DNA from: an uncultured virus (IMG/VR IMGVR_UViG_3300042257_000362)
Lineage: Duplodnaviria; Heunggongvirae; Uroviricota; Caudoviricetes
Virus record (IMG/VR): IMGVR_UViG_3300042257_000362
Location: 1-64,000 of that record
DNA: 64,000 nucleotides
Reading direction: 5' to 3' (one strand)
Positions 39,056 through 55,411 of this stretch are shown here, in pieces. Numbering within the stretch: the first letter of the stretch is position 1; each line of letters opens with the position of its first letter. Below the pieces are notes generated by a model, which saw only the letters and a list, made by a program, of their open reading frames with translations, was not told the DNA's origin and searched no databases. The translations under genes were made by a program, and so were the position numbers.

Positions 39056-42000
39056 ATGAGTTACCTAAAGAAACTAGTTATTGCATTATTGTTAGTAATT
39101 GTCATAACAATACCGGTAGTATCCGTTAATGTGAAAGCAGATGCGAGTGAAGAAAGAACTATTTATTTAAGTGCAACAGAATTTGATTACCCACCTTTTT
39201 CAGTCACAGATAGTGGTGAAGCAGACGGTTTTTCTGTGGAGCTACTAAAAGCAGTTGCTGAAGAAATGGGCATAGTTGTCACATTTAAAATTGATCAATG
39301 GAACGTTTTAAAAGAAGAACTTAAAAATGGAGAATTAGATATTCTTCCTTTAGTTGGATATACAGAAGAACGGGACGAAATCTATGATTTTACTGTGCCT
39401 TATATCGTCATGCGAGGAAATATTTTCGTTAGAAAAGGTGAAAATGGCATTCAATCTCAAGAGGACTTATTTGGAAAAGAAATCCTTGTGCTTGATGGCG
39501 ATAACTCACAAGAATGGGCTTGGTCTATCGGCTTAGACTCTGAGTTGACTGCGACTGCAACTTATTTAGAAGCATTTGAGCTTTTAGCGAGTGGTGTGTA
39601 TGATGCCGTATTAGCCCAAGGTTTAGTTGGTGAAAAATTAATTAGCGATCATGGATTGGATAATATCACACCGGTCTATGTTTATGATGATAATGGTATT
39701 AATCGATATAAATTGAATTTAGAAGGATATGAACAAAAATTTTGTTTTGCAGTTGTTGAGGGAGATAGTGAATTACTATCTATTTTAAATGAAGGTCTTT
39801 CAATCGTATCAACAAATGGCACCTATGATGAACTTTATCAAAAATGGTTTCCTTTTTTATTAGAATATGAAGGCGTTTCAACAGCTGAGGTTCTTAAATA
39901 TGTTGGTTATGTACTGATTCCTATATTGGTACTATTAATCACCGCTTACTTTATTACAACGAGAAAAACAATAAAAAATAAAACAGAAGAAATTGTAAAA
40001 GAAAAAAATATTGCTGAAAAATATTTGCATGATTTAATCCTATCTGGAAAAATATTTGAAACGAGTATTGAACATGCACCAATCCCGATTATGATTCATG
40101 CAGATGACGGTCAAGTGATAAATATTAGTAAAACTTGGACAAAACTAACAGGTTATCAAAAAGAAGACATACCTACCATCTATGAATGGACAGAAAAGGC
40201 TTTTGGGACTAAGAAAGAAGATGTGCAAAGATTTATATCAGGACTTTATATTTTAACGGAAACTCAACATGACGGAGAATTTGAAGTTAATACTAAAGAT
40301 GACAAAAAATTAATATGGGATTTTTATTCAATCGGTATTGGCCAGTTAACAGACGGAAGAAAAGCTGCAATGAGTGTTGCGACGGATATTACAGAACGTG
40401 TTGAAATCAGTCAACTGCTCAAGGAAAGTGAAGAAAGATTTAAAGCATTGCACAATGCTTCTTTTGGTGGTATTTCCATTCATGATAAGGGATTAATCCT
40501 TGATTGTAATCAAGGACTTGCTGATATGACAGGTTATTCCCAAAACGAACTCATTGGTAGTGATGGGGTAATGTTAATCGCACCTGATTATAGGGATTTT
40601 GTAATGAATAAAATCACTTCTAGTTATGAAAAGCCTTATGAAGCCTATGGACTTAGAAAAAACGGGGATATATATCCACTAAGATTAGAAGCGAGAAAAA
40701 TCCCTTATAAAGGAAAACAGGTTCGAGTTGTTGAATTTAGAGATATCACTGAACAAAAAAAAGTTGAAGAAGAACTATTAGTTAAACAAAAAGAATTACA
40801 ACACTCGAAATATTTAATGAATTATATCATTGAACATAATAATGCAGGTGTTGCAGTTCATGACAAAGAGTTGAATTATGTTTATGTGAGCAATAAATAC
40901 TTAGATCAATACGATATTCATGATGATATCATTGGAAAGCATCATCATGATGTTTTTCCAGATTTGCCTGACAAGTGGCGTGAAATTCATCAGAAAACAT
41001 TACAGGGCATGGTTTTTAAAAACGATAAGGATCTCTTTGTGAGAAATGATGGAATCTTACTATGGACAAGATGGGAATGTCGACCTTGGTATGATGCCAA
41101 TGATGAAATTGCTGGAATTATTATATACACCGAAGTTATTAATGAATTAGTTAAAGCGGAGCAAGAAAAAGAATATCTATTAACACACGATCAACTAACT
41201 GGCTTGAATACTCGTATATATTTTGATGAGCAAATAAAGCAAATCGATAAAGATGAGAACCTTCCAATCTCACTCATTAATTTCGATATTAATGGTCTAA
41301 TTATAATCAACGAAGCATTTGGACATGAATATGGCGATGAATTTATCAAGTTTATTGCACAGACGCTTAAGGACGTTTTTAATGATGAAAGCGTTATTTC
41401 AAGAGTAGGTGGCGATCAGTTTACAGTGCTTTTAAAAAACACATCAAACAAAACTGCAGAAAATTTAGCAAAAGAAGTTGCTGCTCGAGTCAAGAATCAG
41501 GATATTAAGGGCACCCAAATATCGATTGCACATGGTATTGCAACAAAAAACAAAGATGAAGAAATTAGTAAGTTGTTTACAATCTCTGAGAATAATATGT
41601 ATTCTAACAAGATTTTCGAATCTCAATCATATCGAAATAATTCAATTAAATCCATGATAAAAGCATATCATGAAAAAAATCCAAGAGAAGAAGAACATTC
41701 AAAACGTGTATCGATATTATGCGAAAAATTTGCTGAAGTTTTAGAAATGAACTATGAGGATATTAACAAACTAAAGGCAATAAGTCATCTCCATGACATC
41801 GGTAAAATTGCCATTGATGAAGCTATCTTAAATAAACCGGGGAAACTAAACGATGTAGAGTGGGAAACTATTAAAAAGCATCCTGAAATTGGTGCACGCA
41901 TAATTTCAACTTCACATGAGTACTCAGTCATTGCAGATGACATATTATCGCATCACGAAAGATATGATGGTAATGGTTATCCAAGAGGAATAGCGGGTAA

Positions 42001-42205
42001 AGATATTCCAATAAGAGCACGCATGATTGCCATTATTGATTCTTATGATGCCATGACATCTGATAGACCATACCGAAAAGCAATGGCAAAGCAAGAAGCA
42101 ATTGATGAAATCGTTAGATGTTCAGGTACACAATTTGATCCAGATTTAGTAGAGGTTTTCATCAAGAAAGTCATTATAAATGATGACGCTGATATAACAT
42201 CATAA
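39056..42205 (+). CDS. Solute-binding domain + TM + PAS domains + degenerate GGDEF + HD-GYP phosphodiesterase
   Basis: DYPPFS..GFSVEL; PAS/PAC RDITE motifs; GGDQF; HDIGK and HHERYDGNGYP. Confidence 0.9.
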   Translation: MSYLKKLVIALLLVIVITIPVVSVNVKADASEERTIYLSATEFDYPPFSVTDSGEADGFSVELLKAVAEEMGIVVTFKIDQWNVLKEELKNGELDILPLVGYTEERDEIYDFTVPYIVMRGNIFVRKGENGIQSQEDLFGKEILVLDGDNSQEWAWSIGLDSELTATATYLEAFELLASGVYDAVLAQGLVGEKLISDHGLDNITPVYVYDDNGINRYKLNLEGYEQKFCFAVVEGDSELLSILNEGLSIVSTNGTYDELYQKWFPFLLEYEGVSTAEVLKYVGYVLIPILVLLITAYFITTRKTIKNKTEEIVKEKNIAEKYLHDLILSGKIFETSIEHAPIPIMIHADDGQVINISKTWTKLTGYQKEDIPTIYEWTEKAFGTKKEDVQRFISGLYILTETQHDGEFEVNTKDDKKLIWDFYSIGIGQLTDGRKAAMSVATDITERVEISQLLKESEERFKALHNASFGGISIHDKGLILDCNQGLADMTGYSQNELIGSDGVMLIAPDYRDFVMNKITSSYEKPYEAYGLRKNGDIYPLRLEARKIPYKGKQVRVVEFRDITEQKKVEEELLVKQKELQHSKYLMNYIIEHNNAGVAVHDKELNYVYVSNKYLDQYDIHDDIIGKHHHDVFPDLPDKWREIHQKTLQGMVFKNDKDLFVRNDGILLWTRWECRPWYDANDEIAGIIIYTEVINELVKAEQEKEYLLTHDQLTGLNTRIYFDEQIKQIDKDENLPISLINFDINGLIIINEAFGHEYGDEFIKFIAQTLKDVFNDESVISRVGGDQFTVLLKNTSNKTAENLAKEVAARVKNQDIKGTQISIAHGIATKNKDEEISKLFTISENNMYSNKIFESQSYRNNSIKSMIKAYHEKNPREEEHSKRVSILCEKFAEVLEMNYEDINKLKAISHLHDIGKIAIDEAILNKPGKLNDVEWETIKKHPEIGARIISTSHEYSVIADDILSHHERYDGNGYPRGIAGKDIPIRARMIAIIDSYDAMTSDRPYRKAMAKQEAIDEIVRCSGTQFDPDLVEVFIKKVIINDDADITS

Positions 42206-42221
42206 ACGGAGGATAAATATA

Positions 42222-43121
42222 ATGAATATTAACTATAATGATAACCTTATTCCTTATCTATATGAGGGTGTATATGTTGTAGATCAAAAAAGAAAAATTA
42301 TTTTTTGGAATGAAGGAAGTAAGCGTATTACAGGATACTCTGCAGAAGAAGTCATGAATAGTTTTTGTTATCATAATATCTTGCAACATGTCGATTCAGA
42401 AGGAAAAAAATTGTGTTTTGATGGATGCCCATTACACAAAACGTTAGATAATGGAATGATTAATGAAGCGCATGTTTTTTTAAAACATAAAGAGGGTTAC
42501 CGAATACCAGTGATGGTAAAAACACTCCCAATTTATGACGAAAAACAAAATATTGTAGCAGCTATAGAAGTGTTTACCGATGAAAGATTTCAAAAACATA
42601 TCTATCATGAGAATCTTGAACTTAAGAATAAACTTCGTATTGATCCATTAACAAAAATAGCAAACAGACATTTTTTTGATTTTCAACTTTCTAAAAAGAT
42701 AGAAGAGACTAAAGTATTTTCAAGCTTGTTTGGAATTTTAATGATTGATATTGATCATTTCAAATCAGTCAATGATACTTATGGTCATTTGGTTGGAGAT
42801 GAAATCTTGAAAATAGTTGCCAATTCATTATCTTCAAATGTCGAAAAAACAGGTCTTGTCAGTCGTTGGGGAGGCGAAGAGTTTATTGCAATTATTGATG
42901 TTGATAATCAAGATGACTTGCTAAAAGTTGCTGAAAAACTTAGAAATGTTGTGTTAACATCAGGTTATCAATTGGATAGTGGCAAAACAATATCTGTATC
43001 TATATCCATTGGTGGAACACTTGTCAATAGTGATGATGATACTAAGTCACTAATTAATAGAGCAGATGAAAATATGTATTATGCAAAACAAAATGGAAGA
43101 AACCAATCCAAAATTGAATAA
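42222..43121 (+). CDS. PAS-GGDEF diguanylate cyclase
   Basis: DPLT..ANR, DIDHFKSVNDTYGH, RWGGEEF. Confidence 0.93.
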   Translation: MNINYNDNLIPYLYEGVYVVDQKRKIIFWNEGSKRITGYSAEEVMNSFCYHNILQHVDSEGKKLCFDGCPLHKTLDNGMINEAHVFLKHKEGYRIPVMVKTLPIYDEKQNIVAAIEVFTDERFQKHIYHENLELKNKLRIDPLTKIANRHFFDFQLSKKIEETKVFSSLFGILMIDIDHFKSVNDTYGHLVGDEILKIVANSLSSNVEKTGLVSRWGGEEFIAIIDVDNQDDLLKVAEKLRNVVLTSGYQLDSGKTISVSISIGGTLVNSDDDTKSLINRADENMYYAKQNGRNQSKIE

Positions 43122-43170
43122 TGGATTATGTTGGTTTTTTGGATATTATTTTTGACATTTACCTTTGTTA

Positions 43171-43242
43171 AGCCACTTTTCTGGGGTGGCGTAAAAATAT
43201 GGCAGAGGTGCGCAATTGTATTAAAATAGGTTACATATTCCA
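43171..43242. other. attR-like right end of element I
   Basis: GGGGTG...GAGGTG then AATTGTATTAAAATAGG; CCA starts 26 nt after AATTGTA, same as at 52083/52109. Confidence 0.7.
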
Positions 43243-43449
43243 CATTAAGAAAAGTTATAGAAAAATTCTAGTATAATTTTTAAGGCATAAATAAATATGA
43301 TGATCTTTATATCAAATATTTTAATAATTAATTGTTAATGAAAAACTAAACGGAGTGTTCTAGTTATATTTGACTTTTAATGAAAGAATAACAGTAATTT
43401 TATAAAAAAGATGGATTATATACAACTATAAAATAAATTCCAAGATAAA

Positions 43450-44355
43450 ATGAGGTATATAAATATGTATAAAATCAGTAAAAAATTTGTTACATTAATC
43501 AATCAAGAAAAAATAGCATACATTGATCAGGGGAAAAGTGAAAAAGTGCTTCTGTTAATTCACGGGAATATGGCATCTTCAGCAACAATGATTACATTAA
43601 TTGAAGCCTTAAAAGATGATTATCGTGTGATTGCACCAGATATGCGTGGTTTTGGTGACTCGTCATTTAATAAAAATTTTACAACATTGAAAGAACTTGC
43701 ATTTGATATGTTTTTATTTTGTAAGGCATTAAATGTCAAAAAAGCACACGTCGTTGGTTGGTCAACAGGATTTGGTGTTGCAATGGAACTCGCTTTATTG
43801 GCACCAGAAATGGTTCAATCATTATTTAGTATTGAAGGAATGAGCGTTAAAGGATATTATTCTAGAAGGAAAGATAAAGACGGACATATTTTAAAACACA
43901 AAATTTTCAATAGTTTCAATGAAATGACAGCGGATGAAAGCATGCAATTAGTTCCTGAAGCACTAAAAAGAAAAGATAGAGCGTTTGTTAAAAGCATATG
44001 GATGAACTTGCTCCTTCATGTGAAACCAGAAAAAAACGAAAATTTACTTAATTTATATATTGATGAAACTTTAAAAGAAAGATGTCAAATGAATATTAAT
44101 TGGTGCTGGGTTAATTATAATATTTCAAATGAATCAAATTTATATACAAATGGTCATAATAGAGTTAATGAATTGAAATGCCCAGTTTATTTAACATTGG
44201 CTGACAAAGACAATGTTGTTTATGAAGATATGATTATGGAAAATGTGAAATTTATTAAACAAGCTAAACTTATCCACTTTAATGAAGCAGGACATTGCCT
44301 TCATATTGATCAACTTGATGCTGTTGTTAAAGCAATGAAAAAATATTTAAAGTAA
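43450..44355 (+). CDS. Alpha/beta hydrolase
   Basis: LLIHGN, DMRGFGDS, GWSTG nucleophile, AGH. Confidence 0.9.
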   Translation: MRYINMYKISKKFVTLINQEKIAYIDQGKSEKVLLLIHGNMASSATMITLIEALKDDYRVIAPDMRGFGDSSFNKNFTTLKELAFDMFLFCKALNVKKAHVVGWSTGFGVAMELALLAPEMVQSLFSIEGMSVKGYYSRRKDKDGHILKHKIFNSFNEMTADESMQLVPEALKRKDRAFVKSIWMNLLLHVKPEKNENLLNLYIDETLKERCQMNINWCWVNYNISNESNLYTNGHNRVNELKCPVYLTLADKDNVVYEDMIMENVKFIKQAKLIHFNEAGHCLHIDQLDAVVKAMKKYLK

Positions 44356-44479
44356 ATGTGCGAATAATTATGAAATGAAATTACAATATTTTGTAAATAA
44401 AAACTGTTAGTCATATTAATTTACCCAATATCAAAGTCTCTTTTTTATAGGGTAGAGTATATAAAAACTAACTGTTTTT

Positions 44480-44944
44480 TTATCTTACTTTTTTCATAAA
44501 TGCTTCAAGTTGCTTAGTTTTAGGATTTTCCAAAATGTCTGGTTCACCATGTTCGATAATATGTCCGTCATCTAGAAAGACAACATAATCAGCAAAATCT
44601 TTTACAAAACTTATAACATGGGTGACAAAAATAAAATCTTTTCCTAACCCCTTTAATTCTTCAATAGCTGTTAAAACCTCATCAGTTAAAATAGGATCAA
44701 GAGAAGATGTTGGTTCATCTAAAAAGACAATATCAGGATTCATAGCAAGTGCTCTTGCAATTGATGCTCTTTGTGCCTGTCCTCCAGAAACATTTCTCGG
44801 TAGTTTATAGTGTTGATCTCTAAGATGTAGAAGATCTAGATACTTGTCAGCAATTTGTGATGCTTTTTCTTCATCAACTTTTCTTGTTTTTTCTAAAACC
44901 AATGTAATATTTTTCTTAAGTGTTAAATGAGGAAAAAGATTATG
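44480..44944 (-). pseudogene. 5'-truncated polar amino-acid ABC ATPase (GlnQ-like)
   Basis: HNLFPHL, VSGGQAQR, FLDEPTSSLDP, FVTH present; Walker A half absent. Confidence 0.85.
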
Positions 44945-45097
44945 GAAACATTCATAACCAATCTAAAAAAATCAGAAAATGAACTATCTGATTGGAATGT
45001 ACGAATATGGATGCTTATGGTGGAAAGTGCAACTGTCCATAGGAATTCGAGTATAACGTTTAGGTTTCGCAATGGAGTCTCTATAAAAATTAACTGA
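44942..45097 (+). pseudogene. 3' remnant of large serine recombinase 2 homologue
   Basis: METFITNLKKSENELSDWNVRIWMLMVESATVHRNSSITFRFRNG matches MKAFIASLSESEDKLDEWNERIWMLLVDGATVHRDSSITFKLYNG. Confidence 0.92.
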
Positions 45098-45124
45098 GTC
45101 GCTTGAAAAATAGCGACTTTTTTT
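45097..45124 (+). terminator. Intrinsic terminator
   Basis: AGTCGCT...AGCGACT plus T-run. Confidence 0.75.
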
Positions 45125-45189
45125 GTATTTTTATAATTAAGAAAATATGTTATAATTTTAGTTAAGAGAATATCTTGGAGGACCACATC

Positions 45190-45651
45190 ATGGATAACTA
45201 CGAAGTTGCAATCAATGGGACTACTTTAGCTGCACAGATTCTAGGTATAGAAACTCCTGATGTGCAGTTTTTTTATAACCAAGATTTAACGGAAAAAGGG
45301 ATCAACTCCATTTTTCTAAAGGATAAATATATCATAGCATTTAATGAAGAGTGGATAGAGCAAGCAAATCAAGTGGAAATTCTAATCACTTGTTTCCATG
45401 AGAGTAGACATGCACTCCAATGGAAAGTTATAACTGGTGAGTACACCGGAACTGAAGTAATAGATCCAATGACGATTCATAAATGGAAAGATGAAATGAG
45501 CAATTACAATTCACCTACAAAAAAAGACATTCCAGAAGAAGAATATCTAAAGCAGGCGATTGAGATTGATGCTATAGCATTTGCACATAAGATGATGTTA
45601 GAACATTTTGGGGTAAGAACTTATGTACCAAATATGATTGAAAATAAATAA
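45190..45651 (+). CDS. HExxH zincin-like metallopeptidase
   Basis: CFHESRH and EIDAIAFA; start re-assigned to 45190. Confidence 0.75.
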   Translation: MDNYEVAINGTTLAAQILGIETPDVQFFYNQDLTEKGINSIFLKDKYIIAFNEEWIEQANQVEILITCFHESRHALQWKVITGEYTGTEVIDPMTIHKWKDEMSNYNSPTKKDIPEEEYLKQAIEIDAIAFAHKMMLEHFGVRTYVPNMIENK

Positions 45652-45681
45652 AAAATATATTTAGAAATGAGGGGATAAATC

Positions 45682-46014
45682 ATGAAAAAAACTAATAGTA
45701 ACAAAGGAATCTTATATTTAATTCTAATTGTAAACGGTCTATATTTAGCCATTTCATTCATTGCTTATTTGATAAAAATGAGTACTTATCCTATCAGTGC
45801 GAATATTATAGATTTTCTATACTTAATACCATATTTAGCAATTGGAATAATTATAAGTGTGGGACTCTCATTGTATTTCTATAAAAAGTATGAACGACAA
45901 AACATTGATATCATCGAAAAATCAAAAGTTTTCCTATTGGTTAATTTACCTAGTTTTATTATGTTTGATTTAACCATCTTTATTATATTGGCTATGGTGA
46001 TTCAAGTAGATTAA
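45682..46014 (+). CDS. Small membrane protein (about 3 TM)
   Basis: Hydrophobic segments; GAGGGG RBS. Confidence 0.65.
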   Translation: MKKTNSNKGILYLILIVNGLYLAISFIAYLIKMSTYPISANIIDFLYLIPYLAIGIIISVGLSLYFYKKYERQNIDIIEKSKVFLLVNLPSFIMFDLTIFIILAMVIQVD

Positions 46015-46046
46015 CTTCAAATAACATCATGTGAAGAGGTGGTTTA

Positions 46047-47573
46047 ATGAGATTTGAAATATGGGATGCCATTAGGATAGAAAATTTAACCAGTAAAGAA
46101 AAACTGCTATGGTTTGATACACTAAACTATGGCTTAGAGGAAGACAGAGGATACAAATTAAATGATCCTAATATTCAAACAATACAAGAGTCGATTAGAG
46201 AAGATTATATAACTTATTTGGAAGAGTGTCATAAAAGCAAGTTATTTCATTCGTATTTTGTGTTGTATGATAATTCTGTTATTGTGTCATTGTGTCGAGT
46301 GATTTTGAATGAACAAGGACAATATTTAGTTGAAGGATTAGAAACACACAGAAGCTATAGAAAACGAGGTTATGCAAAAGCCCTAGAGAATCGCGTTTTT
46401 GAAGTTCTCAATAAGAGTAATGTAAAAACAGTATTTGCAAAAGTGTCAAAACATAATGAAGAATCACTTGCATTTCATTCAAAAATGGGCTATGAAGTTT
46501 ATTCTGAAACAGATAGTGAATACTTGCTGCAATATAAAATACCAAGTGAAGAAGATAATATGCTAAGAATTAAGTTGATTAATCTAGTTCTTAATTCTTT
46601 TGAATTTGATTATAAACTTGTTGATTTTCAAACATATTATAACTATATCAATTTTGAATCTGATCCTATCCAAGTCAAGATTATTGCTAAAGTAACTCTA
46701 AGTAATCAACGAGAGTATGTTATTAGAATTTTAAGAGAAAATCATATTACATTCGATGAAATAGTAAAACAAAATGAGTTATCTGAGATTTTTAGAGCAA
46801 ATGGTATTAATACACCGAAGAAGTATAATTTTGAGGGAAAACTTGTGAAAAAAATCTATCATAATAACTATATGATGTATGCTACTATTGAAGATTACGT
46901 AGGCGATCACATAAAAAAGCTGAACAAGAACACTTTATATGAATGTGGTAAATTACTTGCGAAAACTCACAAAGTTTCTGAAGAATTAACTCTCTCCATA
47001 GAATCAGATGGATATGTATATAATTTTGCAGGGAAAAACGAAGTAGTCTTAATTGACAAACTTGTTGATTTATCCATTAAATTCAATTTTGAAACAGATA
47101 AAATTAAGAAAATACATCAACTATATCTTCTAAAACATAAAAGAATCGTTAAAGCGTTAAATAACTTAAAGCGCTATGCTGTACAAGGAGATTTGAACAC
47201 AAATAATATTAGCCTATATAACAATGAGTTATGGTTATATGACTATAACATTGCCTGTAATGAATATTTTGTTGTTATGTTAGCAATAGATGCATTAATG
47301 ATGATTTACGAGGAAGAATTCGAGGAGTACTTATCAAAAGAGGATAAATTTAGGACTTTTATTTCAGGATATAAATCAGTTAGAACTATGAATGAATCTG
47401 AAGAGTTATTGTTACCACAAATATTTGAATTAGCTGATACATTGTGGTTTTCAAAAATTCATATCAGGAAGACATCACTTGAAAGACTACTTGATAAAAA
47501 TGAAATAGACAAAGCAAAAACTTTAGTTGATGAAATTTATATAAATTTAAGTGCTGCAGTAGACTATATATAG
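46047..47573 (+). CDS. GNAT acetyltransferase / APH-like kinase fusion
   Basis: YRKRGYAK and NEESLAFHSKMGY (GNAT); QGDLNTNN and LYDYN (kinase). Confidence 0.75.
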   Translation: MRFEIWDAIRIENLTSKEKLLWFDTLNYGLEEDRGYKLNDPNIQTIQESIREDYITYLEECHKSKLFHSYFVLYDNSVIVSLCRVILNEQGQYLVEGLETHRSYRKRGYAKALENRVFEVLNKSNVKTVFAKVSKHNEESLAFHSKMGYEVYSETDSEYLLQYKIPSEEDNMLRIKLINLVLNSFEFDYKLVDFQTYYNYINFESDPIQVKIIAKVTLSNQREYVIRILRENHITFDEIVKQNELSEIFRANGINTPKKYNFEGKLVKKIYHNNYMMYATIEDYVGDHIKKLNKNTLYECGKLLAKTHKVSEELTLSIESDGYVYNFAGKNEVVLIDKLVDLSIKFNFETDKIKKIHQLYLLKHKRIVKALNNLKRYAVQGDLNTNNISLYNNELWLYDYNIACNEYFVVMLAIDALMMIYEEEFEEYLSKEDKFRTFISGYKSVRTMNESEELLLPQIFELADTLWFSKIHIRKTSLERLLDKNEIDKAKTLVDEIYINLSAAVDYI

Positions 47574-47592
47574 TATTTGAAGGAGGTTCATT

Positions 47593-48249
47593 ATGGCAGA
47601 TTTATATGGAAGAACTTATGAATATGTAACTAGAGCAGAATTGTCGCCAGCAAGAGAGCAAATAGAAAAAATTATTGGATCTCTGCATACAAAATTAAGA
47701 AAAGAAGGCGTAACATTTGAACACAAACTTATTGGTAGTGTTGGAAAGAATCTAGTGACAAAAGTAGTCGGTGGAAACAAAGGATTTGACTTTGACTATA
47801 ACTTTGTTATTCAAAAAGATAATGACTTAGAGGCAAAAGAATTACGTCAATTATTCGTTCGTAAACTTGAGGAAATTGTTGCTAAAACCAATTATAAGAC
47901 TGTTTCAGATGGAGAACAATCATTTACAATTAAAGTGGTTGATAAAAAGAAAAGCCAAATCAAATATGGATGTGATTTCGCTATAGTGAACGAGTATATA
48001 GATAATCAAAACAACTTCAGACAGCAAATACTTGTCAAGCATTCAAACAACAACTACGGTTGGGAAGATAAGCCTATTGCAAAGAATTATTCTACCAAAG
48101 TTTCAAATCTAAAGGCTAACGGTTTATGGAATGAAGTTCGAGATGAATATTTGAAAGTAAAAAATAACAATAGAGATGGAAACAAGAAATCATATACAAT
48201 GTATTATGAGGCTGTAAATAATGTGTACGGTAGATATCGCTGGGTCTAG
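47593..48249 (+). CDS. Nucleotidyltransferase, cGAS/DncV-like catalytic core
   Basis: LIGSVG, DFDYN, third Asp in CDFAI. Confidence 0.72.
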   Translation: MADLYGRTYEYVTRAELSPAREQIEKIIGSLHTKLRKEGVTFEHKLIGSVGKNLVTKVVGGNKGFDFDYNFVIQKDNDLEAKELRQLFVRKLEEIVAKTNYKTVSDGEQSFTIKVVDKKKSQIKYGCDFAIVNEYIDNQNNFRQQILVKHSNNNYGWEDKPIAKNYSTKVSNLKANGLWNEVRDEYLKVKNNNRDGNKKSYTMYYEAVNNVYGRYRWV

Positions 48250-48973
48250 CCCTTTGGTAACTAAACTCTCACTTGATATTTCAAAGGACGATTTCGTTTC
48301 AAGGATGGAGTTTGAAAATGAAAAGGAACGAGATCGGTGTTTGCAGTATCTTGACCTAAAGGGAGTAGCATACCATACAGTATTAGTCAATTATATAGGA
48401 CTTAATAAAGATGGAAAGATCCAATATAAAAGAGTTCAGAACTTATACATTTATGACAAAAGGGTAAGAAATATACTCTATCGATTTTTGTCTGCTCTAG
48501 AAGAGGGAATTAGAGGTTTCATTGCAAATAAATATTGTGGAAAATTAGATAACATTAAGAAACTTTCTAAATCAATTCATAAGTCGATTACTGAGGGTAG
48601 CAGTCTCTCGAAAGAATTAGAAGATCTTGATTTTAATAAACTGATGAATCTTACAAAAAAGCTTACTGTTAAAGAGAAAAGGTCCTTGTTTGGTAGAACA
48701 GATAGACTTGAAGAGAATTTGCTTGCAGTTAAGCAGCTAAGAAATGCAGTAAGCCATCATAGAATGTTATTTGTCTATGAAGACTTATATGAATGCTATT
48801 TTGAGGATGGAACAATAGGTGATTCGCTTATGGATAATATTGTGAATCTCAGACAACTATTGAATCCATATTATATAGATTTCTTTACTAAGGCAATCAA
48901 CAACAGTTCAGTTGATGAAAAAGATTTAACTTTTGTAACCACATTGCCTGATAAAGCAATTTTACATTTTTGA
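48221..48973 (+). CDS. Abi-family (AbiD/F-like) HEPN ribonuclease
   Basis: LYIYDKRVRNIL...LEEGIR and RNAVSHH (RxxxxH); start uncertain. Confidence 0.8.
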   Translation: MCTVDIAGSSPLVTKLSLDISKDDFVSRMEFENEKERDRCLQYLDLKGVAYHTVLVNYIGLNKDGKIQYKRVQNLYIYDKRVRNILYRFLSALEEGIRGFIANKYCGKLDNIKKLSKSIHKSITEGSSLSKELEDLDFNKLMNLTKKLTVKEKRSLFGRTDRLEENLLAVKQLRNAVSHHRMLFVYEDLYECYFEDGTIGDSLMDNIVNLRQLLNPYYIDFFTKAINNSSVDEKDLTFVTTLPDKAILHF

Positions 48974-49011
48974 GATAGCCTTTATATGATATAGTTTTGG
49001 GAGGAAAAGAT

Positions 49012-49530
49012 ATGAGTTGGGAGTATAATGAATATACAAAACCGTGTCCTTGTGGTAAAGGATTAATAAGAGTTGTAGATGGTTCAAATGACTGGGGACA
49101 AACATCTCATGATGAAACCATTTTATGTCCTGAATGCAAAGAAAAAGCAAAAGTAGCAAGAGCTCAAAAAGAAGAGAGATTCAGAGTTGCTAATAACAAG
49201 ATCTCACTAGCAGTTTCTTATTTTAGAGATAACTACTCTCATTTATTAGAGAGTAAATTTGAGAATACAAAAAGTAAAAAAGCTATTTGGCAGGTTGCCT
49301 ATGATTTAGGTATAGAAACTCAAAGCCTTGCAACTTTTTATAAACATTTTATTTCAAAAGAAAAATACATTCACGGTCTGATTTCTTGGTATAGAATACA
49401 CTCGATTATTCTTGCTCTTGAAATAAAGGATCAGAGACTTGAAGAGTTATATAAAGATGCTAAAGCTCATATTAAAGAGTTTGATGATGAACGTGCTGCA
49501 GCTGCCTACATGTATTATAAAGGTAGGTAA
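49012..49530 (+). CDS. Zinc-ribbon hypothetical protein
   Basis: CPCGKG...NDWG...CPEC; own promoter and GGAGG RBS. Confidence 0.7.
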   Translation: MSWEYNEYTKPCPCGKGLIRVVDGSNDWGQTSHDETILCPECKEKAKVARAQKEERFRVANNKISLAVSYFRDNYSHLLESKFENTKSKKAIWQVAYDLGIETQSLATFYKHFISKEKYIHGLISWYRIHSIILALEIKDQRLEELYKDAKAHIKEFDDERAAAAYMYYKGR

Positions 49531-49567
49531 ATGACGATAATAAAAGGTATTATAGGGGGTTGGTTAC

Positions 49568-50857
49568 ATGAAGTATATGAGTTTTAATCGATCGTGTTCA
49601 TATACATGTTTGGCTTATATGATAGGGGATTATGGTTTGAATTATACGGATAAAGATATAGCACTTGAAATGAAACTGGCATATCTTTTATATAATGACT
49701 CAAAGAATAATGAATATCTATCAGGTGCAATGTTACAAGGGAAGAGATGGTTTGATTTATTCTTGAATCGTCATTCTTTTGAGTTTATTGAAGACGAATA
49801 TAAGAAAAATGTTGCGTTATCTGTCATTAAGAATTCTAATAGAAAATTAATGGTGGGGATAAATTTAAAAACCGGTAAACACGCTATGGTTTATTGTCCA
49901 TCAGAAACACAACTGTTTAGATTCTTTAATCCTCATTATGAGAATGATGGTGTTGCTGACTTTTTTGTCTATTCAGAACAAGAATTACTTGATCTTCTAG
50001 ATGATGAGGTGACTATTGGCTACATTAATCATAATCCGAGAATTACTGTTCCTGAGCTTGAACTATATGGTCATTCATGTGGTTATCTAGATAAATATGT
50101 GGTAGACATAATTGAATTTTGTTCGATTGAACATACACTTGATGAGATAGGAGAAGTAAAAGAATCATTGTTTGCTGGACTATTACTTTCACCAATACCA
50201 TTGTTAGAATTCGAGGGAGAGAACGAACTTGTTGATTGCCTTAAAAAACTACAAACAGACTTTATTCGTGCCCTTCGACAAACAAAAACTAGTATTAGAC
50301 TATTAGATTATTTTAATCCTTTAGAGCTTAATGCATGTGTTAGGAAGTATAAGGAATCAATTAAAAGGAAAGCAATGCTGGACAGTTTAATTATCAGAAA
50401 AGCTACAGATGAAGATGCAGAAGGAAAAGGATATGTTCATTATCAAAGTTGGATTGAAACATATACTGGTCTTTTTCCTGATGAAGTTATGGCAAGATTA
50501 TCTTTAGAAAAGAATATACAATTAGCAAAAGACTATCCAGAGAACACATATGTTGCCATTGTAGATAATAAGATTATTGGATTCTGTTGCTATCTTGAAT
50601 CAAGAGATGATGATTTAGAAGATACTGGCGAAATTGTGGCAATATACATATTAAAGGAATATCAAGGTCTCGGTATTGGAAAGCAATTGATGGAAGTATG
50701 CTATAAAGAATTAAGTAAATATTCAAAACTATCACTATTGGTACTTGGAAGTAATAAGAAATCAGTAGGTTTTTATGAGAAACAAGGGTTTATTGCTGAT
50801 GGTAAAACAAAGATACTTCATGGAAAAGAAGTTATTAGAATGATTAAGAGTTTGTGA
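49568..50857 (+). CDS. C39-peptidase-like domain fused to GNAT
   Basis: SCSYTC...HAMV...FFNP; C-terminal YQGLGIGK...FYEKQGF. Confidence 0.65.
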   Translation: MKYMSFNRSCSYTCLAYMIGDYGLNYTDKDIALEMKLAYLLYNDSKNNEYLSGAMLQGKRWFDLFLNRHSFEFIEDEYKKNVALSVIKNSNRKLMVGINLKTGKHAMVYCPSETQLFRFFNPHYENDGVADFFVYSEQELLDLLDDEVTIGYINHNPRITVPELELYGHSCGYLDKYVVDIIEFCSIEHTLDEIGEVKESLFAGLLLSPIPLLEFEGENELVDCLKKLQTDFIRALRQTKTSIRLLDYFNPLELNACVRKYKESIKRKAMLDSLIIRKATDEDAEGKGYVHYQSWIETYTGLFPDEVMARLSLEKNIQLAKDYPENTYVAIVDNKIIGFCCYLESRDDDLEDTGEIVAIYILKEYQGLGIGKQLMEVCYKELSKYSKLSLLVLGSNKKSVGFYEKQGFIADGKTKILHGKEVIRMIKSL

Positions 50858-50866
50858 GGTGATGAC

Positions 50867-51331
50867 ATGTTTTCATTCTTCGAGTTTGATGATCTAACTG
50901 ATGGTGAAATTAGATTAGTAGTTGATGAGTTGATTCCAGAAGACAAAGAAAAAGGTTTTGTTCCAGCATATAAGTTTAACATTGTAGAAGAAAAATCAGA
51001 TCTGAAAGTTGGTTTTATTGATGTCAGAATTGGACATAATAAAGGTTTGTATTATGGTGGCAATATTGGATATACAGTATATGAAAAACATAGAGGACAT
51101 AATTACGCTTTAAAAGCATGTAAATTAATAAAGAATGTTGCTATCAAACATAACATGGAATATCTATATGTTACTTGTAATCCTGATAACATAGCTTCAA
51201 GAAGAACATGCGAAAAGTTAGGGTTACCTTTGCTAGAAATTGTTGAATTACCAGAAGATAATGATATGTATAAAGAAGGTGAAAGGCAAAAGTGTATATA
51301 TTATTGGAGACTTTTGCCTAGATTGAGCTAA
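50867..51331 (+). CDS. GNAT acetyltransferase
   Basis: GGNIGY, HRGHNYA, NIASRRTCEKLG. Confidence 0.88.
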   Translation: MFSFFEFDDLTDGEIRLVVDELIPEDKEKGFVPAYKFNIVEEKSDLKVGFIDVRIGHNKGLYYGGNIGYTVYEKHRGHNYALKACKLIKNVAIKHNMEYLYVTCNPDNIASRRTCEKLGLPLLEIVELPEDNDMYKEGERQKCIYYWRLLPRLS

Positions 51332-51375
51332 AACTACGAAATATTGTAGTAATTTGTTAAGAGAGAAGTGATTAT

Positions 51376-51876
51376 GTGAAAGAAATATCAAACTGTAAAT
51401 ATTGTGGAGGTTCATTATCAACTTAAAGTATCAAAGGAGAGGGAAATATACCATATTGTATGGATTGTGATGAATTGTTCTTTCCAACATCCGATATTGC
51501 AATTTTAGGAATAATCGTAAATGATTCAAATCAAGTTCTTATGTTGAAACAACAAGTAGTTAACGAGTATTATGTTCTCGTTGCAGGATATTACAAAAAA
51601 GGCGAACAATTAGAAGATACACTCAAAAGAGAAGTTTTTGAAGAAACAGGTATTGATATCACAAATATTCAATATCATGGTAATAAATACTACGAGAAGA
51701 AAAATATCTTAATGTTTGTTTACTCTGCAAAGGCTATAACAACCGTTATAAGGATAAACGAATCAGAAGTTGATTCTGCAATTTGGGTTAATTTAGATAA
51801 AGCGATAAAATTAATGAGACCAGGATCAATTGGTGATATAGTTTTAAAAGAATATATTAATCATATTTCTAACTGA
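51376..51876 (+). pseudogene. NudC-like Nudix hydrolase with premature stop
   Basis: GTG start, CKYC...CMDC zinc finger split by TAA at 51424; Nudix box GYYKKGEQLEDTLKREVFEETG. Confidence 0.78.
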
Positions 51877-52031
51877 GATTTTTTCATCAAATCATAAAGA
51901 GTTTCATTATTCAAAAATTATAGAGTTCGATACCCAGCATTAAACAGATAGTTGAATAACCTATTTTGATACAAAGAAATTAATACTAAAAAAATGCAAA
52001 AAATAAAACCTCTAAACTAAGCCATAATTTA

Positions 52032-52080
52032 GGGGTGCAATTTTTTCGGGTGGGGGTGCAAAAATTTTGACTAGGGGTGT
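52032..52080 (+). repeat. Three GGGGTGY repeats, 21-bp period
   Basis: At 52032, 52053 and 52074. Confidence 0.8.
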
Positions 52081-52082
52081 AA

Positions 52083-52138
52083 AATTGTAGCAAAATAGGT
52101 CATACAACCCATATAAGAAGCATAGGTTTGATACAATT
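52083..52138. other. attP-like site of large serine recombinase
   Basis: Inverted repeat AATTGTAGCAAA/TTTGATACAATT, 56 bp, centred on CA at 52110-52111. Confidence 0.75.
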
Positions 52139-52155
52139 GTATCAGGCCTTTTTTT
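52124..52155 (+). terminator. Terminator-like hairpin built on the att arm
   Basis: AGGTT-TGATACAATTGTATCA-GGCCT plus T-run. Confidence 0.6.
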
Positions 52156-52249
52156 ACGCTATATAGGGCCGTTTCACGATTTGCCTCAATTTATCAAGCC
52201 TGAAAAGAGTATCGCTTTTACTAGATTTTGGACATTTCAATAGAATTTC

Positions 52250-52298
52250 TACACGATTATATTTCAAAATACACGATTTAAAATGGATTTACACGATT
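52250..52298 (+). repeat. Three TACACGATT repeats, 20-bp period
   Basis: At 52250, 52270 and 52290; partial CACGATT at 52175. Confidence 0.85.
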
Positions 52299-52426
52299 TC
52301 AGTAATCAAGCCATTTAACAGGTATGCTTGATTTTTTAGTAGGCTACACTATGATTTTATCCATTCAACACCTATCATCAAAATATATAATATGATATAA
52401 TAACGTTGATTATATGAGGTGATTTT

Positions 52427-53392
52427 ATGAAATATATAGCAAAAGAAAAAATTTACATAGACCCTAAACATTTGCTTACATACTATCAAATGACTACAAT
52501 AGACAACATTGAAGGAGCACTAAAGGATTCATTTCTTAACATCCTAGCTGACAATGCTGGATTAATTATGCGAACTGCAGATCTAAAAAATAAATATTTG
52601 GAAAGTCTAAAACAATATGAAAATATTGATATTGAAAGTTTAGAACATAAGTATTCCAATAAAAACTATGTTCAAATTTTTAAGAATTTAACAGGATCCA
52701 ATGTAAAGAATACCACAAACCTCTTGCGAGATAAAAATGTTAACTGGTATTATGGAAAAGGTGAATATGGTAATATTTCCCTTATTGAAGCCAAGTGTAT
52801 AGGATCTACTCAATTGCCACTTGGCTTTGACGAGATAAGAGCACATGGCAATAACTATTTTATATTCTTTAATAATGATGTTTCAAACGATCACCAGCTA
52901 CATGATGAGATAACCACTCTAACTTCTTTGAAGGATTCAATTTCTGATGATACCAAATTAACACAAGAAATTATCACAAAAAGTAGAAATATGAAACTTC
53001 AAAAAATATTTCGTAATAGCTGTTTAACAAAGGATAACTTTAAATGCGCTGTAGATGGTTGTGAAGTTTCTGATGAGCATTTATTGATTGCTTCACACAT
53101 AATTCCAGTTAGTGCAATTATAAAAGATAAAAATATGAGCATAAGTCAAAAAATATTATATATAACTAGTGATTCAAATGGTTTGACATTATGTCCGAAT
53201 CATGATGCTCTTTTAGACAAAAATTATATAACTTTTTCATCAGATAATTCAATTATTTTTCATAAAAAAATTAATAATGATAACAGGAAATCTTTAAACG
53301 TTTCAGGAGTAACAAAGTTAAAGAAACACCGTAGTGATGATGAGAAAATGAAACAGAACTTCGAGATGCTTAGAAAAGTGTTTTTGTCATAA
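52427..53392 (+). CDS. HNH endonuclease (restriction-associated type)
   Basis: CAVDGC, LIASHIIP, NGLTLCPNHDALLD. Confidence 0.85.
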   Translation: MKYIAKEKIYIDPKHLLTYYQMTTIDNIEGALKDSFLNILADNAGLIMRTADLKNKYLESLKQYENIDIESLEHKYSNKNYVQIFKNLTGSNVKNTTNLLRDKNVNWYYGKGEYGNISLIEAKCIGSTQLPLGFDEIRAHGNNYFIFFNNDVSNDHQLHDEITTLTSLKDSISDDTKLTQEIITKSRNMKLQKIFRNSCLTKDNFKCAVDGCEVSDEHLLIASHIIPVSAIIKDKNMSISQKILYITSDSNGLTLCPNHDALLDKNYITFSSDNSIIFHKKINNDNRKSLNVSGVTKLKKHRSDDEKMKQNFEMLRKVFLS

Positions 53393-53455
53393 ACTAATAG
53401 TGAGTGGATTACTGTAATTTAATATGCTATAATCAATACAATGGAGGAGATTAGA

Positions 53456-54559
53456 ATGAGAGAAAACAACAAGTTTTTACAGGATCAAATTATTACTTAT
53501 TTGGGTAATAAAAGAAGCTTGAATCCATATATTGAAAACGAAATAAAGAAAATTAAGAAGTCTCTTAATAAAGACAAGTTGGTTACACTAGATTTATTTT
53601 CTGGATCTGGAATCGTAGCTAGAATGCTAAAAAAGCATTCTGAGAAACTTATTGCGAACGACTTAGAAGAGTATTCTCAAATCATAAATGAATGTTATTT
53701 AAGTAATCATTCAGATTTTGATAGAAAGAAGTACGACTTATATAAAGAAAAACTAGATGATTTATTATCCAATAAAGTATATAAAAAAGGAATCATCACT
53801 TCAAACTATGCTCCTAAAAATGATTTGCATATTAAAAAAGGAGAAAGATGTTTTTATACAACAGAAAATGCACAGATTATTGATACAATAAGAGACTTCG
53901 TTGATACCATTGAAGAACCTATGAAAAAATATTTTTTAGCACCTTTACTATATCAAGCATCTGTTAATACAAATACAGCTGGGATATTTAAGGGGTTCTA
54001 TAAAGATTCATCAACTGGAATTGGAAAATACGGTGGAAACGGTGAGTTTGCTTTAAAAAGAATAAAAGGTAAAATACAAATACTGGAACCAATATTTAGT
54101 AACTTTGAAACTGATGTTTTAGTCACTAGAGAAGATGCTAATAACCTTGTTAAAAGAGAAAAAAACTTTGATGTTGTTTACATTGATCCGCCTTATAACC
54201 AACACCCTTATGGATCAAACTACTTTATGTTAAACTTGATTTTAAGTAATAAAATGCCAGATAATATAAGTAAAGTTTCTGGAATACCAAAAAATTGGAA
54301 CAGGTCAGATTATAATTATAAAGCTAAAGCCCTAAATGCCTTTGATGATTTAATTAAGAATATTGATAGTAAATTTATTATCATATCGTATAACTCTGAA
54401 GGAATAATATCATATGATGAAATGATAAAACTGCTAAAACCATATGGTGAATTAACTATTAAGGAAATCGTTTATAATACTTTTAGAGGTAGTAGAAACC
54501 TTAGTGAACGAAGTTTGTATGTTCAAGAGTATTTGTTTGTTTTAAAGAGGGGGGATTAA
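53456..54559 (+). CDS. Type II N6-adenine DNA methyltransferase (Dam/D12 class)
   Basis: YLGNKRSL, DLFSGSG, YIDPPYN, ISYN. Confidence 0.92.
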   Translation: MRENNKFLQDQIITYLGNKRSLNPYIENEIKKIKKSLNKDKLVTLDLFSGSGIVARMLKKHSEKLIANDLEEYSQIINECYLSNHSDFDRKKYDLYKEKLDDLLSNKVYKKGIITSNYAPKNDLHIKKGERCFYTTENAQIIDTIRDFVDTIEEPMKKYFLAPLLYQASVNTNTAGIFKGFYKDSSTGIGKYGGNGEFALKRIKGKIQILEPIFSNFETDVLVTREDANNLVKREKNFDVVYIDPPYNQHPYGSNYFMLNLILSNKMPDNISKVSGIPKNWNRSDYNYKAKALNAFDDLIKNIDSKFIIISYNSEGIISYDEMIKLLKPYGELTIKEIVYNTFRGSRNLSERSLYVQEYLFVLKRGD

Positions 54560-54560
54560 A

Positions 54561-55271
54561 TTGAGTCAAAGAGAATCGTTGAGAGAAAGATACGAGCAAC
54601 ACAAACCTAAAAACACTAGATCTAAAAAGACAGATAAGGCTATTTATTCATCAATGGAAGCTGTTATTGAATATTTACATCATAGATTTAAAGGGATGTT
54701 GGATGATTATGAAATCACATTCGAGAAAAATATCAAAATAGATTATATGATAAAATTCATAAAGCAAAAAGGTATCAGACTAGAGTTTGATTATGACTTT
54801 GAAGATCGTAAAATCATCCCTGATGGAGGAGTGCTGTTCTTAAATAAAAAGTCTTCAGAAGAGTTGAAAAAACCGTTACTTATTTCTGAAATCAAAGTAC
54901 AAGGAACTAATAAAAAAAGACTTAAAGAGGGGAAAACGAAACAAGCTACAGGTAATGCCATTGAACGTTTAGGTAAGAACTTAACTGGAATTAAAGCAAT
55001 GATGAATCACGAGAAGATTACTCCATTTGTTTGTTTTGGACAAGGATGTGATTTTGCTCCAGAAGTGAAGACAGTTTTAGCTAAAGTTCACATTTTAAAC
55101 GAATTTTATGATTTGAATAGAACACATGTTTTCAAAAAGGATGGTAATTCAGATAACAATTACTATAGTCCTGTCTCTATGTATTTTAGGGAAGAAGACT
55201 GGTCAGAAGAAGAAATGTTTGATATAATGAAGGAAATCGCAGAAACTGCCTTAAGATATTATATCTTTTAA
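54561..55271 (+). CDS. EcoRI-family type II restriction endonuclease
   Basis: PDGG...SEIKVQG and ATGNAIER motifs as in EcoRI. Confidence 0.85.
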   Translation: MSQRESLRERYEQHKPKNTRSKKTDKAIYSSMEAVIEYLHHRFKGMLDDYEITFEKNIKIDYMIKFIKQKGIRLEFDYDFEDRKIIPDGGVLFLNKKSSEELKKPLLISEIKVQGTNKKRLKEGKTKQATGNAIERLGKNLTGIKAMMNHEKITPFVCFGQGCDFAPEVKTVLAKVHILNEFYDLNRTHVFKKDGNSDNNYYSPVSMYFREEDWSEEEMFDIMKEIAETALRYYIF

Positions 55272-55411
55272 TATCATTGAGATCTAAATTCTTTTGAATT
55301 TTGGTCTCTTTTTAGTTATGCTCCATGATGCCATTATCAAATATGTACAAGAATACCTTTTGATGATACAATATAATTGTTAATACGGACAAGGATAAGG
55401 TGGTATTACAT

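Follow-up and report, generated by a model that had tools for sequence, protein, structure and literature searches.

Two overlapping genes at positions 47,593 to 48,973 of the uncultured virus record IMGVR_UViG_3300042257_000362 (IMG/VR) encode a compact nucleotidyltransferase (NTase), the product of open reading frame 1 (ORF1), and an Abi_2 family protein bearing the RNxxxH motif of HEPN ribonucleases (RNases), the product of ORF2. The stretch analysed, referred to throughout as the window, consists of positions 1-64,000 of this 99,745 nt record. The favoured reading, held at a probability of roughly 0.55, is that the two genes form an operon-encoded, toxin-antitoxin-like abortive-infection module, in which the catalytic NTase keeps an AbiF-family HEPN RNase silent.

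AbiD/F toxins are among the commonest abortive-infection genes and, to our knowledge, all characterised members are controlled by small RNA. If the favoured reading is correct, this toxin lineage can also come under the control of a protein enzyme, one with the fold of cGAS and of the synthases known as cGAS/DncV-like nucleotidyltransferases (CD-NTases), and the module connects three subjects hitherto pursued separately: NTase-HEPN toxin-antitoxin pairs, immunity by nucleotide signals and the lineage leading from AbiF to Cas13. In the available portions of three reports, AbiD/F are described as type III toxin-antitoxin systems, in which a toxic HEPN RNase dimerises around a shared active site that is blocked when an upstream-encoded non-coding RNA (ncRNA) with abiF motifs binds the toxin, and Cas13 is proposed to descend from this lineage (PMC13064643, PMC12373285, PMC12737573). 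The available part of a 2013 HEPN survey gives restriction-modification and ParB/HNH contexts for Abi2/AbiF/AbiD and mentions no NTase partner (PMC3710099). Similarly, no description of an NTase paired with an AbiD/F HEPN protein was found in the open full-text literature, subscription journals being outside the scope of the search.

Organisation of the gene pair

A first-pass annotation, made from the letters alone, had named an NTase gene and an Abi gene at this locus, and both are present, on the + strand, exactly where it placed them. The features of the pair are as follows, with counts referring to alignments of 33 NTases and 25 Abi proteins; 'solo' NTases are those with no Abi gene beside them.

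47593..48249, + strand: ORF1, the NTase gene (218 aa), without a family name and with a CD-NTase-like predicted fold
48221..48973, + strand: ORF2, encoding a compact Abi_2 (AbiD/F-type) HEPN protein (250 aa), a predicted RNase toxin
47579..47586, + strand: Shine-Dalgarno-like GAAGGAGG, 6 nt 5' of the NTase ATG, read from the sequence
48221..48249, + strand: 29 nt overlap of ORF1 and ORF2, from the Abi ATG at 48221 to the NTase stop codon TAG at 48247-48249
48208-48211, + strand: GAGG, 9 nt upstream of the Abi ATG and inside ORF1
47734..47739, + strand: codons of G48-S49 (NTase GS motif), 33/33 sequences, kept in aligned divergent paired and solo homologues
47788..47796, + strand: codons of D66-F67-D68 (metal-binding DxD), D66 and D68 in 33/33, kept in divergent pairs
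47974..47976, + strand: codon of D128 (third catalytic Asp), invariant in 33/33
48103..48246, + strand: NTase residues 171-218 (helix 171-177, SNLKANG, and C-terminal tail with Y215 and W217), the Abi contact surface predicted by co-folding
48740..48757, + strand: codons of R174-N-A-V-S-H179 (HEPN RNxxxH), with R174, N175, S178 and H179 in 25/25 and the pattern kept in divergent and phage copies

The start of ORF1 lies 19 nt past the stop codon of an upstream gene for a 508 aa GNAT-domain protein, and because the sole terminator-like hairpins on the + strand near the pair are at 45096-45119 and 52124-52149, the pair is part of a tightly packed run of genes on the same strand. Of the 24 listed sequencing runs that contain the stretch, none is of RNA. 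At other paired loci, the two ORFs overlap by 4-131 nt or are separated by gaps of at most 18 nt, taking the longest ORF in each case. Both the GNAT-domain gene and ORF3 (48997-49530, encoding a zinc-ribbon-like protein) were considered as parts of the module and rejected, as no homologue of either lies next to the pair at any of the 80 genome loci described below, while 22 small minus-strand ORFs near the NTase start were dismissed as antisense shadows of the conserved 5' region of the NTase gene.

Co-occurrence and parallel divergence of the pair

The association between the NTase and Abi genes is far beyond chance. A search of metagenomes with the Abi protein matched 124 stretches, 48 of which encoded a relative, and wherever a full-length Abi gene (an ORF of at least 215 aa) was preceded by at least 600 nt of DNA, an NTase gene lay immediately upstream (28/28 loci). 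Two of these 28, L101 and L108, are broken under translation table 11 and read through under table 4: their NTase genes (L101:2376-3032 and L108:2370-3026) contain four and five in-frame TGA codons respectively, most of them at positions where relatives have Trp. Because the in-frame stops of both loci are all TGA and the genes are intact under code 4, the pair is also present in Mycoplasmatota that read TGA as Trp. All four full-length Abi loci with a shorter upstream sequence (L082, L093, L098 and L122) have a partial NTase reaching the contig edge, and at L105 a partial upstream NTase was detected by tblastn only. The only Abi matches with more than 2.8 kb of upstream sequence and no NTase were short fragments of 81-129 aa (L107, L117, L123 and L129).

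A search in the other direction, with the NTase and using one genome per species, matched 191 stretches, of which 97 encoded a relative; the best 80 were kept, with approximately 6 kb fetched on each side. Searching all their ORFs by BLAST and profile hidden Markov model showed that at 12 of the 80 (L001, L003-L012 and L025) the NTase gene is directly followed by an overlapping Abi gene of the same strand. These 12 come from Mycoplasmatota/Acholeplasmataceae and from metagenome-assembled genomes of unclassified Bacillota. No Abi gene was found in the other 68 within approximately 6 kb on either side. At L002, the NTase match ends at residue 167 and Abi is absent, and the NTase ORF of L014 is a 115 aa fragment. 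A DUF5677 protein encoded downstream of the L013 NTase was tried as a possible Abi relative and found to be unrelated to the Abi profile (hhalign probability 0.3).

The two proteins also diverge in parallel. The deeply divergent pairs L121, L124, L125, L127 and L128 have Abi proteins 30-34% identical, and NTases 24-34% identical, to those of the window, and the L119 pair is more divergent than these. The identities of the NTase and Abi proteins to the window copies covary with a Spearman coefficient of 0.98 across 39 loci, which are related and hence not independent events. One further pair has the reverse order: in the complete human-faeces phage genome PV036423.1 (L130 2340-3609), an Abi-like gene (225 aa, profile E 1.1e-16, with RNxxxH) comes first and still overlaps the NTase gene that follows (206 aa, E 3e-43). 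Conservation of the gene pair, which the first-pass annotation had named as a check on its own proposal, is therefore borne out by both sets of counts and by the parallel divergence.

That the genes are mere neighbours with no functional link is hardly credible. The NTase family is mostly found without Abi (68/80 genome loci), which favours such a view, but the upstream NTase of every one of the 28 full-length Abi genes, the parallel divergence and the reversed phage pair all oppose it, as do the variable flanks of the pair and a co-folding result that passes its controls, both described below.

A compact NTase with a CD-NTase-like predicted fold

ORF1 matches no Pfam, NCBIfam, PHROG or PADLOC family and no PDB sequence, whether searched as a single sequence or as a profile. 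A word-indexed search recovered 131 homologues and, among the 120 relatives listed, none carries a precomputed Pfam domain or any name beyond 'hypothetical protein'. When the NTase profile was compared with 1.84 billion representatives, 1,131 clusters were matched at E ≤ 1e-3, 704 at ≤ 1e-10 and 180 at ≤ 1e-30, which brings to notice a large NTase family without a Pfam model, some Abi-less members of which lie on conjugative elements and prophages. A search of plasmids for the NTase found no match. The 11 longer relatives have no fused Pfam domain; at least two of them, P0187 and P0232, proved on reading to be tandem NTase-NTase proteins, the N-terminal copy of P0187 keeping GS and DxD-like motifs, and P0197 and P0210 may likewise be tandem, judging by their length and two profile-matched stretches (all four being 376-444 aa).

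The residues G48, S49, D66, D68 and D128, which make up the core catalytic set of a polymerase-beta-type NTase, are invariant in the 33-sequence alignment, so that the GS, DxD and third Asp motifs picked out by the first-pass annotation are upheld; T56, W179, Y186, K190, K198, S200, E206 and N210 are also invariant. An AlphaFold model of the protein (predicted local distance difference test, pLDDT, 87.9; predicted template modelling score, pTM, 0.78) has a second helical lobe. Against the PDB, Foldseek places ClCdnE (7x4a) first (E 1e-6, TMq 0.59), followed by DwCdnB, EmCdnE, BfCdnB and cGAS, with CD-NTases at E 1e-6 to 1e-5. The Foldseek-independent program VIA gives CdnB 7ljo as its best match (Z 13.5, 190 residues aligned, root-mean-square deviation, rmsd, 4.7), and its top 11 rows are all bacterial CD-NTases (Z 10.2-13.5, 181-196 residues aligned); below these are cGAS, URT1 (Z 9.9), TUT7 (Z 9.7) and OAS2 (Z 9.7), within a range of Z 9.7-9.9. 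The fold search suggested by the first-pass annotation hence puts CD-NTases first by both methods.

By sequence profile, the window protein matches none of the CD-NTase families SMODS (PF18144), DncV-like (PF21654) and Mab-21 (PF03281). One of the 33 members matches SMODS at E 0.077 and one matches Mab-21 at E 0.13, both sub-threshold, and in a protein atlas the nearest Pfam-bearing clusters are SMODS and DncV-like at 0.86-0.87, a weak agreement to be taken as a lead only. The 'compact cGAS/DncV-like NTase' of the first-pass annotation is a fair description of the predicted fold, with its catalytic residues intact, but does not extend to family membership by sequence.

An Abi_2 protein of the AbiD/F type

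ORF2 scores 34.4 bits with the Pfam family Abi_2, the cut-off of which is 25.6 (E 3.5e-8), and also matches the PADLOC model AbiD at 1.8e-5 and PHROG 2158, an abortive-infection family. Its relatives number 60, of 162-257 aa, and 59 of these carry PF07751. Across 25 sequences the residues R174, N175, S178, H179, H180 and R181, which include the HEPN RNxxxH motif, are invariant, and neither the divergent paired Abi proteins nor the phage copy have lost the motif. The above-threshold Abi_2 match and this invariance agree with what the first-pass annotation had described as an AbiD/F-like protein with an intact RxxxxH motif.

The structural model of ORF2 (pLDDT 90.9, with residues 1-10 not confident) is that of a soluble, all-helical protein. 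Its sole notable Foldseek match is chain 8vz6_A, from a PbAbiF dimer with ncRNA (E 1.5e-3, probability 1.00, TMq 0.54, rmsd 8.0), the next row having an E value of 0.7. Comparison of ORF2 with the 8vz6 chain by profile gave a remote relation (E 0.56), in which both conserved motifs are aligned.

A predicted complex

The NTase and Abi proteins are predicted to form a physical complex. Co-folding the two gave a score of 0.76 in each of three runs, against 0.00 for the best of three controls, with at least 88% of contacts shared between runs and a partner pLDDT of at least 87. A mark of 0.76 is reached by 116/157 solved complexes and 2/215 mismatched pairs, a comparison to be taken only roughly, since own alignments were used here. 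Because neither protein matches a PDB sequence at E < 0.5, recall of a solved complex by the model is a less likely, although still possible, source of the result.

The predicted interface comprises residues 13-18, 53, 168-180 and 213-218 of the NTase and residues 12-20, 24, 50-58, 165, 168 and 185-191 of the Abi protein. The NTase residues S171, N172, A175, N176, G177, Y215 and W217 are 84-100% conserved in 31 main-clade paired NTases as against 23-42% in 66 solo NTases. Averaged over the interface positions, conservation is likewise 0.68 in paired and 0.48 in solo proteins, compared with 0.69 and 0.67 respectively at other positions. In addition, divergent pairs lack both the 'RY-x-W' tail of the NTase and its predicted contact, the N-terminal strand of the Abi protein. 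This contrast in interface conservation and the joint loss of tail and strand agree with the co-fold, yet are independent of it.

Such an interface might belong to a steric, type II-like antitoxin, the NTase blocking the RNase by binding alone and using its catalysis for an unrelated purpose. Helix 171-177 and the C-terminal tail lie away from the catalytic residues, as this would have it, and solo NTases show that the enzyme has an independent life. It is nonetheless quite unlikely, given that the catalytic residues are invariant in all paired lineages, the most divergent included, a pattern that fits a catalytic role without being proof of one.

Proposed mechanism and its alternatives

Under the favoured reading, ORF2 would be an AbiF-family HEPN RNase and the toxic effector, while ORF1 would be a catalytically active NTase with a CD-NTase-like fold that binds it through helix 171-177 and the C-terminal tail. 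ORF1 would thereby silence the RNase, taking the place of AbiFr, the small RNA antitoxin of canonical AbiD/F toxins, and the RNase would be freed once infection, or the element's loss, had done away with or outpaced the action of the NTase. An antitoxin role is suggested by the constitutive toxicity of AbiF relatives and by the finding of no intact Abi without an NTase, while the NTase family thrives without Abi. It is further suggested by the position of the NTase gene, which comes first with a strong ribosome-binding site and translational coupling, and by the predicted stable complex, which fits direct control better than a diffusible signal of the kind used in systems of antiphage signalling that are based on cyclic oligonucleotides (CBASS). 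Neutralisation most likely needs catalysis, because the catalytic residues of the NTase are invariant in every paired lineage.

Silencing might be achieved by either of two routes. ORF1 could nucleotidylylate the RNase, much as MntA, in the available account, neutralises the HEPN RNase HepT by polyadenylylation of a Tyr (PMC7641770). Alternatively, it could make a short oligonucleotide that occupies the RNA-binding or active site of the RNase; a comparable case is Hailong, where an oligodeoxyadenylate made by HalB keeps HalA shut (Tan et al. 2025, as summarised in the available text of PMC13434031). Simple Tyr-AMPylation is counted against by the variability of Y186 in the Abi protein, the resemblance of the NTase to oligonucleotide synthases and an interface that omits the catalytic residues. 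A more specific proposal, speculative and quite improbable as it stands, is that the NTase makes an untemplated short oligonucleotide, free or protein-primed, that lies in the RNA groove of the RNase as an enzymatic stand-in for AbiFr, in which case the solo-clade NTases could be orphan antidotes.

An RNA antitoxin of the canonical kind was sought with the Rfam abiF motif (RF03085). There was no match at E values up to 10 in window positions 44000-52500 and none at the gathering score in 12 paired loci; the whole 99.7 kb record also gave no match, although control genomes were likewise blank, leaving this search with no positive control.

A number of points weigh against the enzymatic antitoxin just described. 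The catalytic residues 48-49, 66-68 and 128 lie outside the predicted interface, with only the nearby N53 touching the partner, and the co-fold score itself is the confidence of a model and no measurement. No universally conserved acceptor exists at Abi position 186, seven residues past H179, because the Tyr found there throughout the main clade is replaced by Phe in L124 and by Cys in L119. The nearest structural relatives of the NTase are signal synthases (CD-NTases) rather than protein-AMPylating minimal NTases, and since 66 of 103 NTases are solo and keep their catalytic residues, the enzyme must have a substrate other than this Abi protein. That Abi depends strictly on the NTase would equally be expected if the NTase were an activator, the phage copy has the Abi gene first, and the blank controls of the RF03085 search mean that a divergent RNA could be missed.

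In the main rival reading, the NTase acts as an infection sensor, and the nucleotide or oligonucleotide that it makes turns on an otherwise inactive HEPN RNase. This would resemble CBASS or the activation by OAS of RNase L, the nuclease domain of which is of the HEPN type. The best fold matches of the NTase are indeed cyclic-oligonucleotide synthases (VIA Z 10.2-13.5; Foldseek E 1e-6), its catalytic residues are invariant, and no intact Abi was found without an NTase, as for an effector needing its synthase. Activation is nevertheless considered unlikely: the Abi protein has no recognisable sensor domain (CARF, SAVED or STING), canonical AbiF relatives are described in the available reports as constitutively toxic and antitoxin-dependent (PMC12373285, PMC13064643), and a diffusible signal does not require the predicted stable heterocomplex with its clade-specific, constrained interface. 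Furthermore, overlapping genes with the antitoxin in first place, the arrangement seen here if the NTase is the antitoxin, are typical of toxin-antitoxin modules.

The terminal uridylyl- and adenylyl-transferases that score slightly below the CD-NTases (URT1 Z 9.9, TUT7 Z 9.7) raise another alternative, that of a joint RNA-processing enzyme in which the HEPN protein cuts RNA and the NTase tails or modifies the ends, whether of tRNA or of host or phage transcripts, neither being an antidote. The predicted complex would suit such an enzyme, and the intact active sites of solo NTases make a non-Abi target possible. However, the pair is found in mobile elements and defence islands with variable flanks rather than in housekeeping operons, and its distribution is patchy, with the pair in just 12 of 80 species-representative NTase loci. 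As the characterised AbiF-family members are also toxins, according to the available texts (PMC12373285, PMC13064643, PMC12737573), joint processing is very unlikely.

Comparison with characterised systems

The pair has a close formal parallel in the type VII toxin-antitoxin system HepT-MntA, which likewise combines a polymerase-beta-type NTase with a HEPN RNase (RxxxxH), has the NTase gene first and forms a heterocomplex, here predicted. The available account reports that the GS...DxD active site of MntA is required for neutralisation (PMC7641770). By contrast with that system, ORF1 is 218 aa long with a CD-NTase-like second lobe and a GS-x16-DxD spacing (GSX10DXD in MNT), and ORF2 is an Abi_2/AbiF protein rather than HepT/DUF86, with no universally conserved Tyr beside the motif. 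Neither ORF1 nor the 33 aligned members match NTP_transf_2, the family by which MNT antitoxins are recognised.

With the AbiD/F systems (AbiF-AbiFr and AbiFCd-RCd22), ORF2 shares the Abi_2 domain, the RNxxxH motif, the model match to PbAbiF and a prophage and defence-island setting. These toxins are, in the available description, neutralised by a partner encoded upstream (PMC13064643). ORF2 differs in being shorter, with 250 aa where the 8vz6 chain has 300 aa, and only remotely related in sequence, and no abiF RNA motif was detected, the upstream position being filled by the protein-coding NTase gene.

The CD-NTases of CBASS (CdnB, CdnE, CdnG and DncV) and cGAS provide the best structural matches to ORF1 and have the GS, DxD and D set in common with it. 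ORF1 is, however, approximately 70-150 residues shorter and has no above-threshold Pfam match to SMODS, Mab-21 or DncV-like, and its partner lacks a known cyclic-nucleotide sensor domain and is predicted to form a stable complex with it. Nor does the locus look like a CBASS operon, as ORF1 has no PADLOC family, the partner matches Abi_2 only and neither ORF has a CBASS hit. The first-pass annotation had remarked on the lack of a SAVED, CARF, transmembrane (TM) or ubiquitin-like CBASS partner, and Pfam, PADLOC and PHROG scans of the neighbouring genes indeed found none.

Hailong is another two-gene system with an NTase as negative regulator, the role proposed here for ORF1: HalB negatively regulates the toxic effector HalA, and NTase active-site mutants are toxic (PMC13434031, reporting Tan et al. 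2025, from the available text). HalA differs from ORF2 in being a membrane channel gated by oligodeoxyadenylate, whereas ORF2 is an Abi_2 protein predicted to be soluble and all-helical. Among the listed Foldseek and VIA matches there is no entry for HalB or Hailong, which does not exclude an unlisted family.

The OAS-RNase L system also couples an NTase of the OAS/cGAS fold with a HEPN-type RNase, and OAS2 matches the NTase model at Z 9.7. In that system, diffusible 2-5A activates RNase L through its ankyrin repeats, whereas the Abi protein here has no sensor domain and direct binding is predicted.

The first-pass annotation had put the pair forward as a candidate new defence system. PADLOC has no model matching the NTase, but the RNase half is a known AbiD/F protein that existing tools would flag as AbiD. 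With this qualification, the interpretation offered there is supported wherever it could be put to a computational test. Current defence finders would call a single-gene AbiD at this locus, overlooking its NTase partner.

NTases without an Abi partner

A quick IQ-TREE phylogeny was built from 103 distinct full-length NTases (37 paired and 66 solo), after removal of sequences below 195 aa, those containing X and duplicates. In this tree, 65 solo NTases form one clade (Shimodaira-Hasegawa-like approximate likelihood ratio, SH-aLRT, 94), paired NTases are spread over several deeper lineages, among which L013 is the single solo member, and two changes of state are enough to account for the pattern. 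Rooting was at the midpoint only, and sampling was biased, with metagenome loci gathered via Abi and genome loci via the NTase.

Gut Clostridia are the source of most solo NTases, which keep the catalytic residues. The genes downstream of them encode PrgI (four loci), MatE-like transporters, ADP-ribosylglycohydrolases, helix-turn-helix (HTH) and LiaF-TM proteins and others; the idea of one synthase serving many effectors found no support, as these genes show no common effector. Large serine recombinases lie 1.1-2.8 kb upstream of solo NTases in several loci. At L017, L024, L030 and L047, all gut Clostridia, a gene of the PrgI family, which belongs to conjugative type IV secretion, directly follows or overlaps the end of the NTase gene, suggesting that these NTases ride on conjugative elements. 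It may be speculated that the Abi-less clade, found on conjugative elements and at prophage ends, derives from paired ancestors, as the midpoint-rooted tree would have it, and that its members are orphan antidotes disarming toxins in new hosts.

Genomic context

The pair sits between two related prophage-like blocks. The first, at approximately 900-38,764, opens with replication genes, continues with those for terminase, portal, capsid and tail, and closes with two large serine recombinases (by PHROG and Pfam); the second begins at 57,175. Between them lies an 18 kb block (39,032-56,915) without phage-structural genes. Besides the pair and a NUDIX gene, it encodes two GGDEF proteins, a hydrolase and GNAT acetyltransferases, and it contains a restriction cluster, composed as follows.

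52427-56257, + strand: restriction cluster, 3.5 kb downstream of the pair
52427-53392, + strand: HNH (HNH_2) protein of the cluster
53441-54559, + strand: type II methyltransferase (PADLOC MTase_II 1.3e-118)
54561-55271, + strand: EcoRI-like endonuclease of the cluster
55400-56257, + strand: GIY-YIG protein with a DUF4357/RAMA domain, of the cluster

In other genomes the flanks of the pair vary and often contain defence genes; among them are SIR2 with HerA, DUF3800, PD-(D/E)XK, an SF1 helicase with DUF2726, AAA_21, KAP NTPase and GIY-YIG, as well as a transposase and large serine recombinases. The behaviour of the pair is thus that of a mobile unit of two genes, complete in itself, that lands in defence islands and at mobile-element ends. 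None of the neighbours scanned is a SAVED, CARF, TM or ubiquitin-like partner.

A gene for a 158 aa protein with an HExxH-like motif and a weak DUF3920 match lies at 45175-45651 (+ strand). It recurs 0.65-2.7 kb upstream of the NTase at L002, L003, L005, L006 and L007, at varying distances; four of these five loci are paired. Just past the recombinases of the first prophage-like block, positions 39032-43121 (+ strand) encode two signalling proteins of the cyclic-di-GMP type. The first (1,057 aa) has SBP_bac_3, PAS, GGDEF and HD-type (HD_5) domains by Pfam, and the second (299 aa) matches the same PHROG families as the GGDEF-domain region of the first, according to the PHROG scan only.

Each prophage-like block has at its left end a copy of a three-gene ABC-3C cassette, at 1155-4341 and 57175-60357 (both - strand), followed by exonuclease and Sak4 genes, to which the first block adds helicase and primase genes. 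The cassette encodes a 600 aa AAA_23 ABC-type ATPase, a 155 aa Middle Component MC2 and a CTD6 protein of approximately 318 aa, as assigned by Pfam for the first copy; the second copy has the same gene sizes, and the same PHROG families for the two larger genes. Within the first block, after the tail genes, the region 33325-34868 (+ strand) encodes a 249 aa protein that gives weak NTase signals (PHROG 388 at 2.9e-6 and, below the cut-off, the Pfam MTPAP-like palm at 2.8e-4). Behind its gene come two short ORFs that overlap and belong to no family, and the region may represent a second NTase module.

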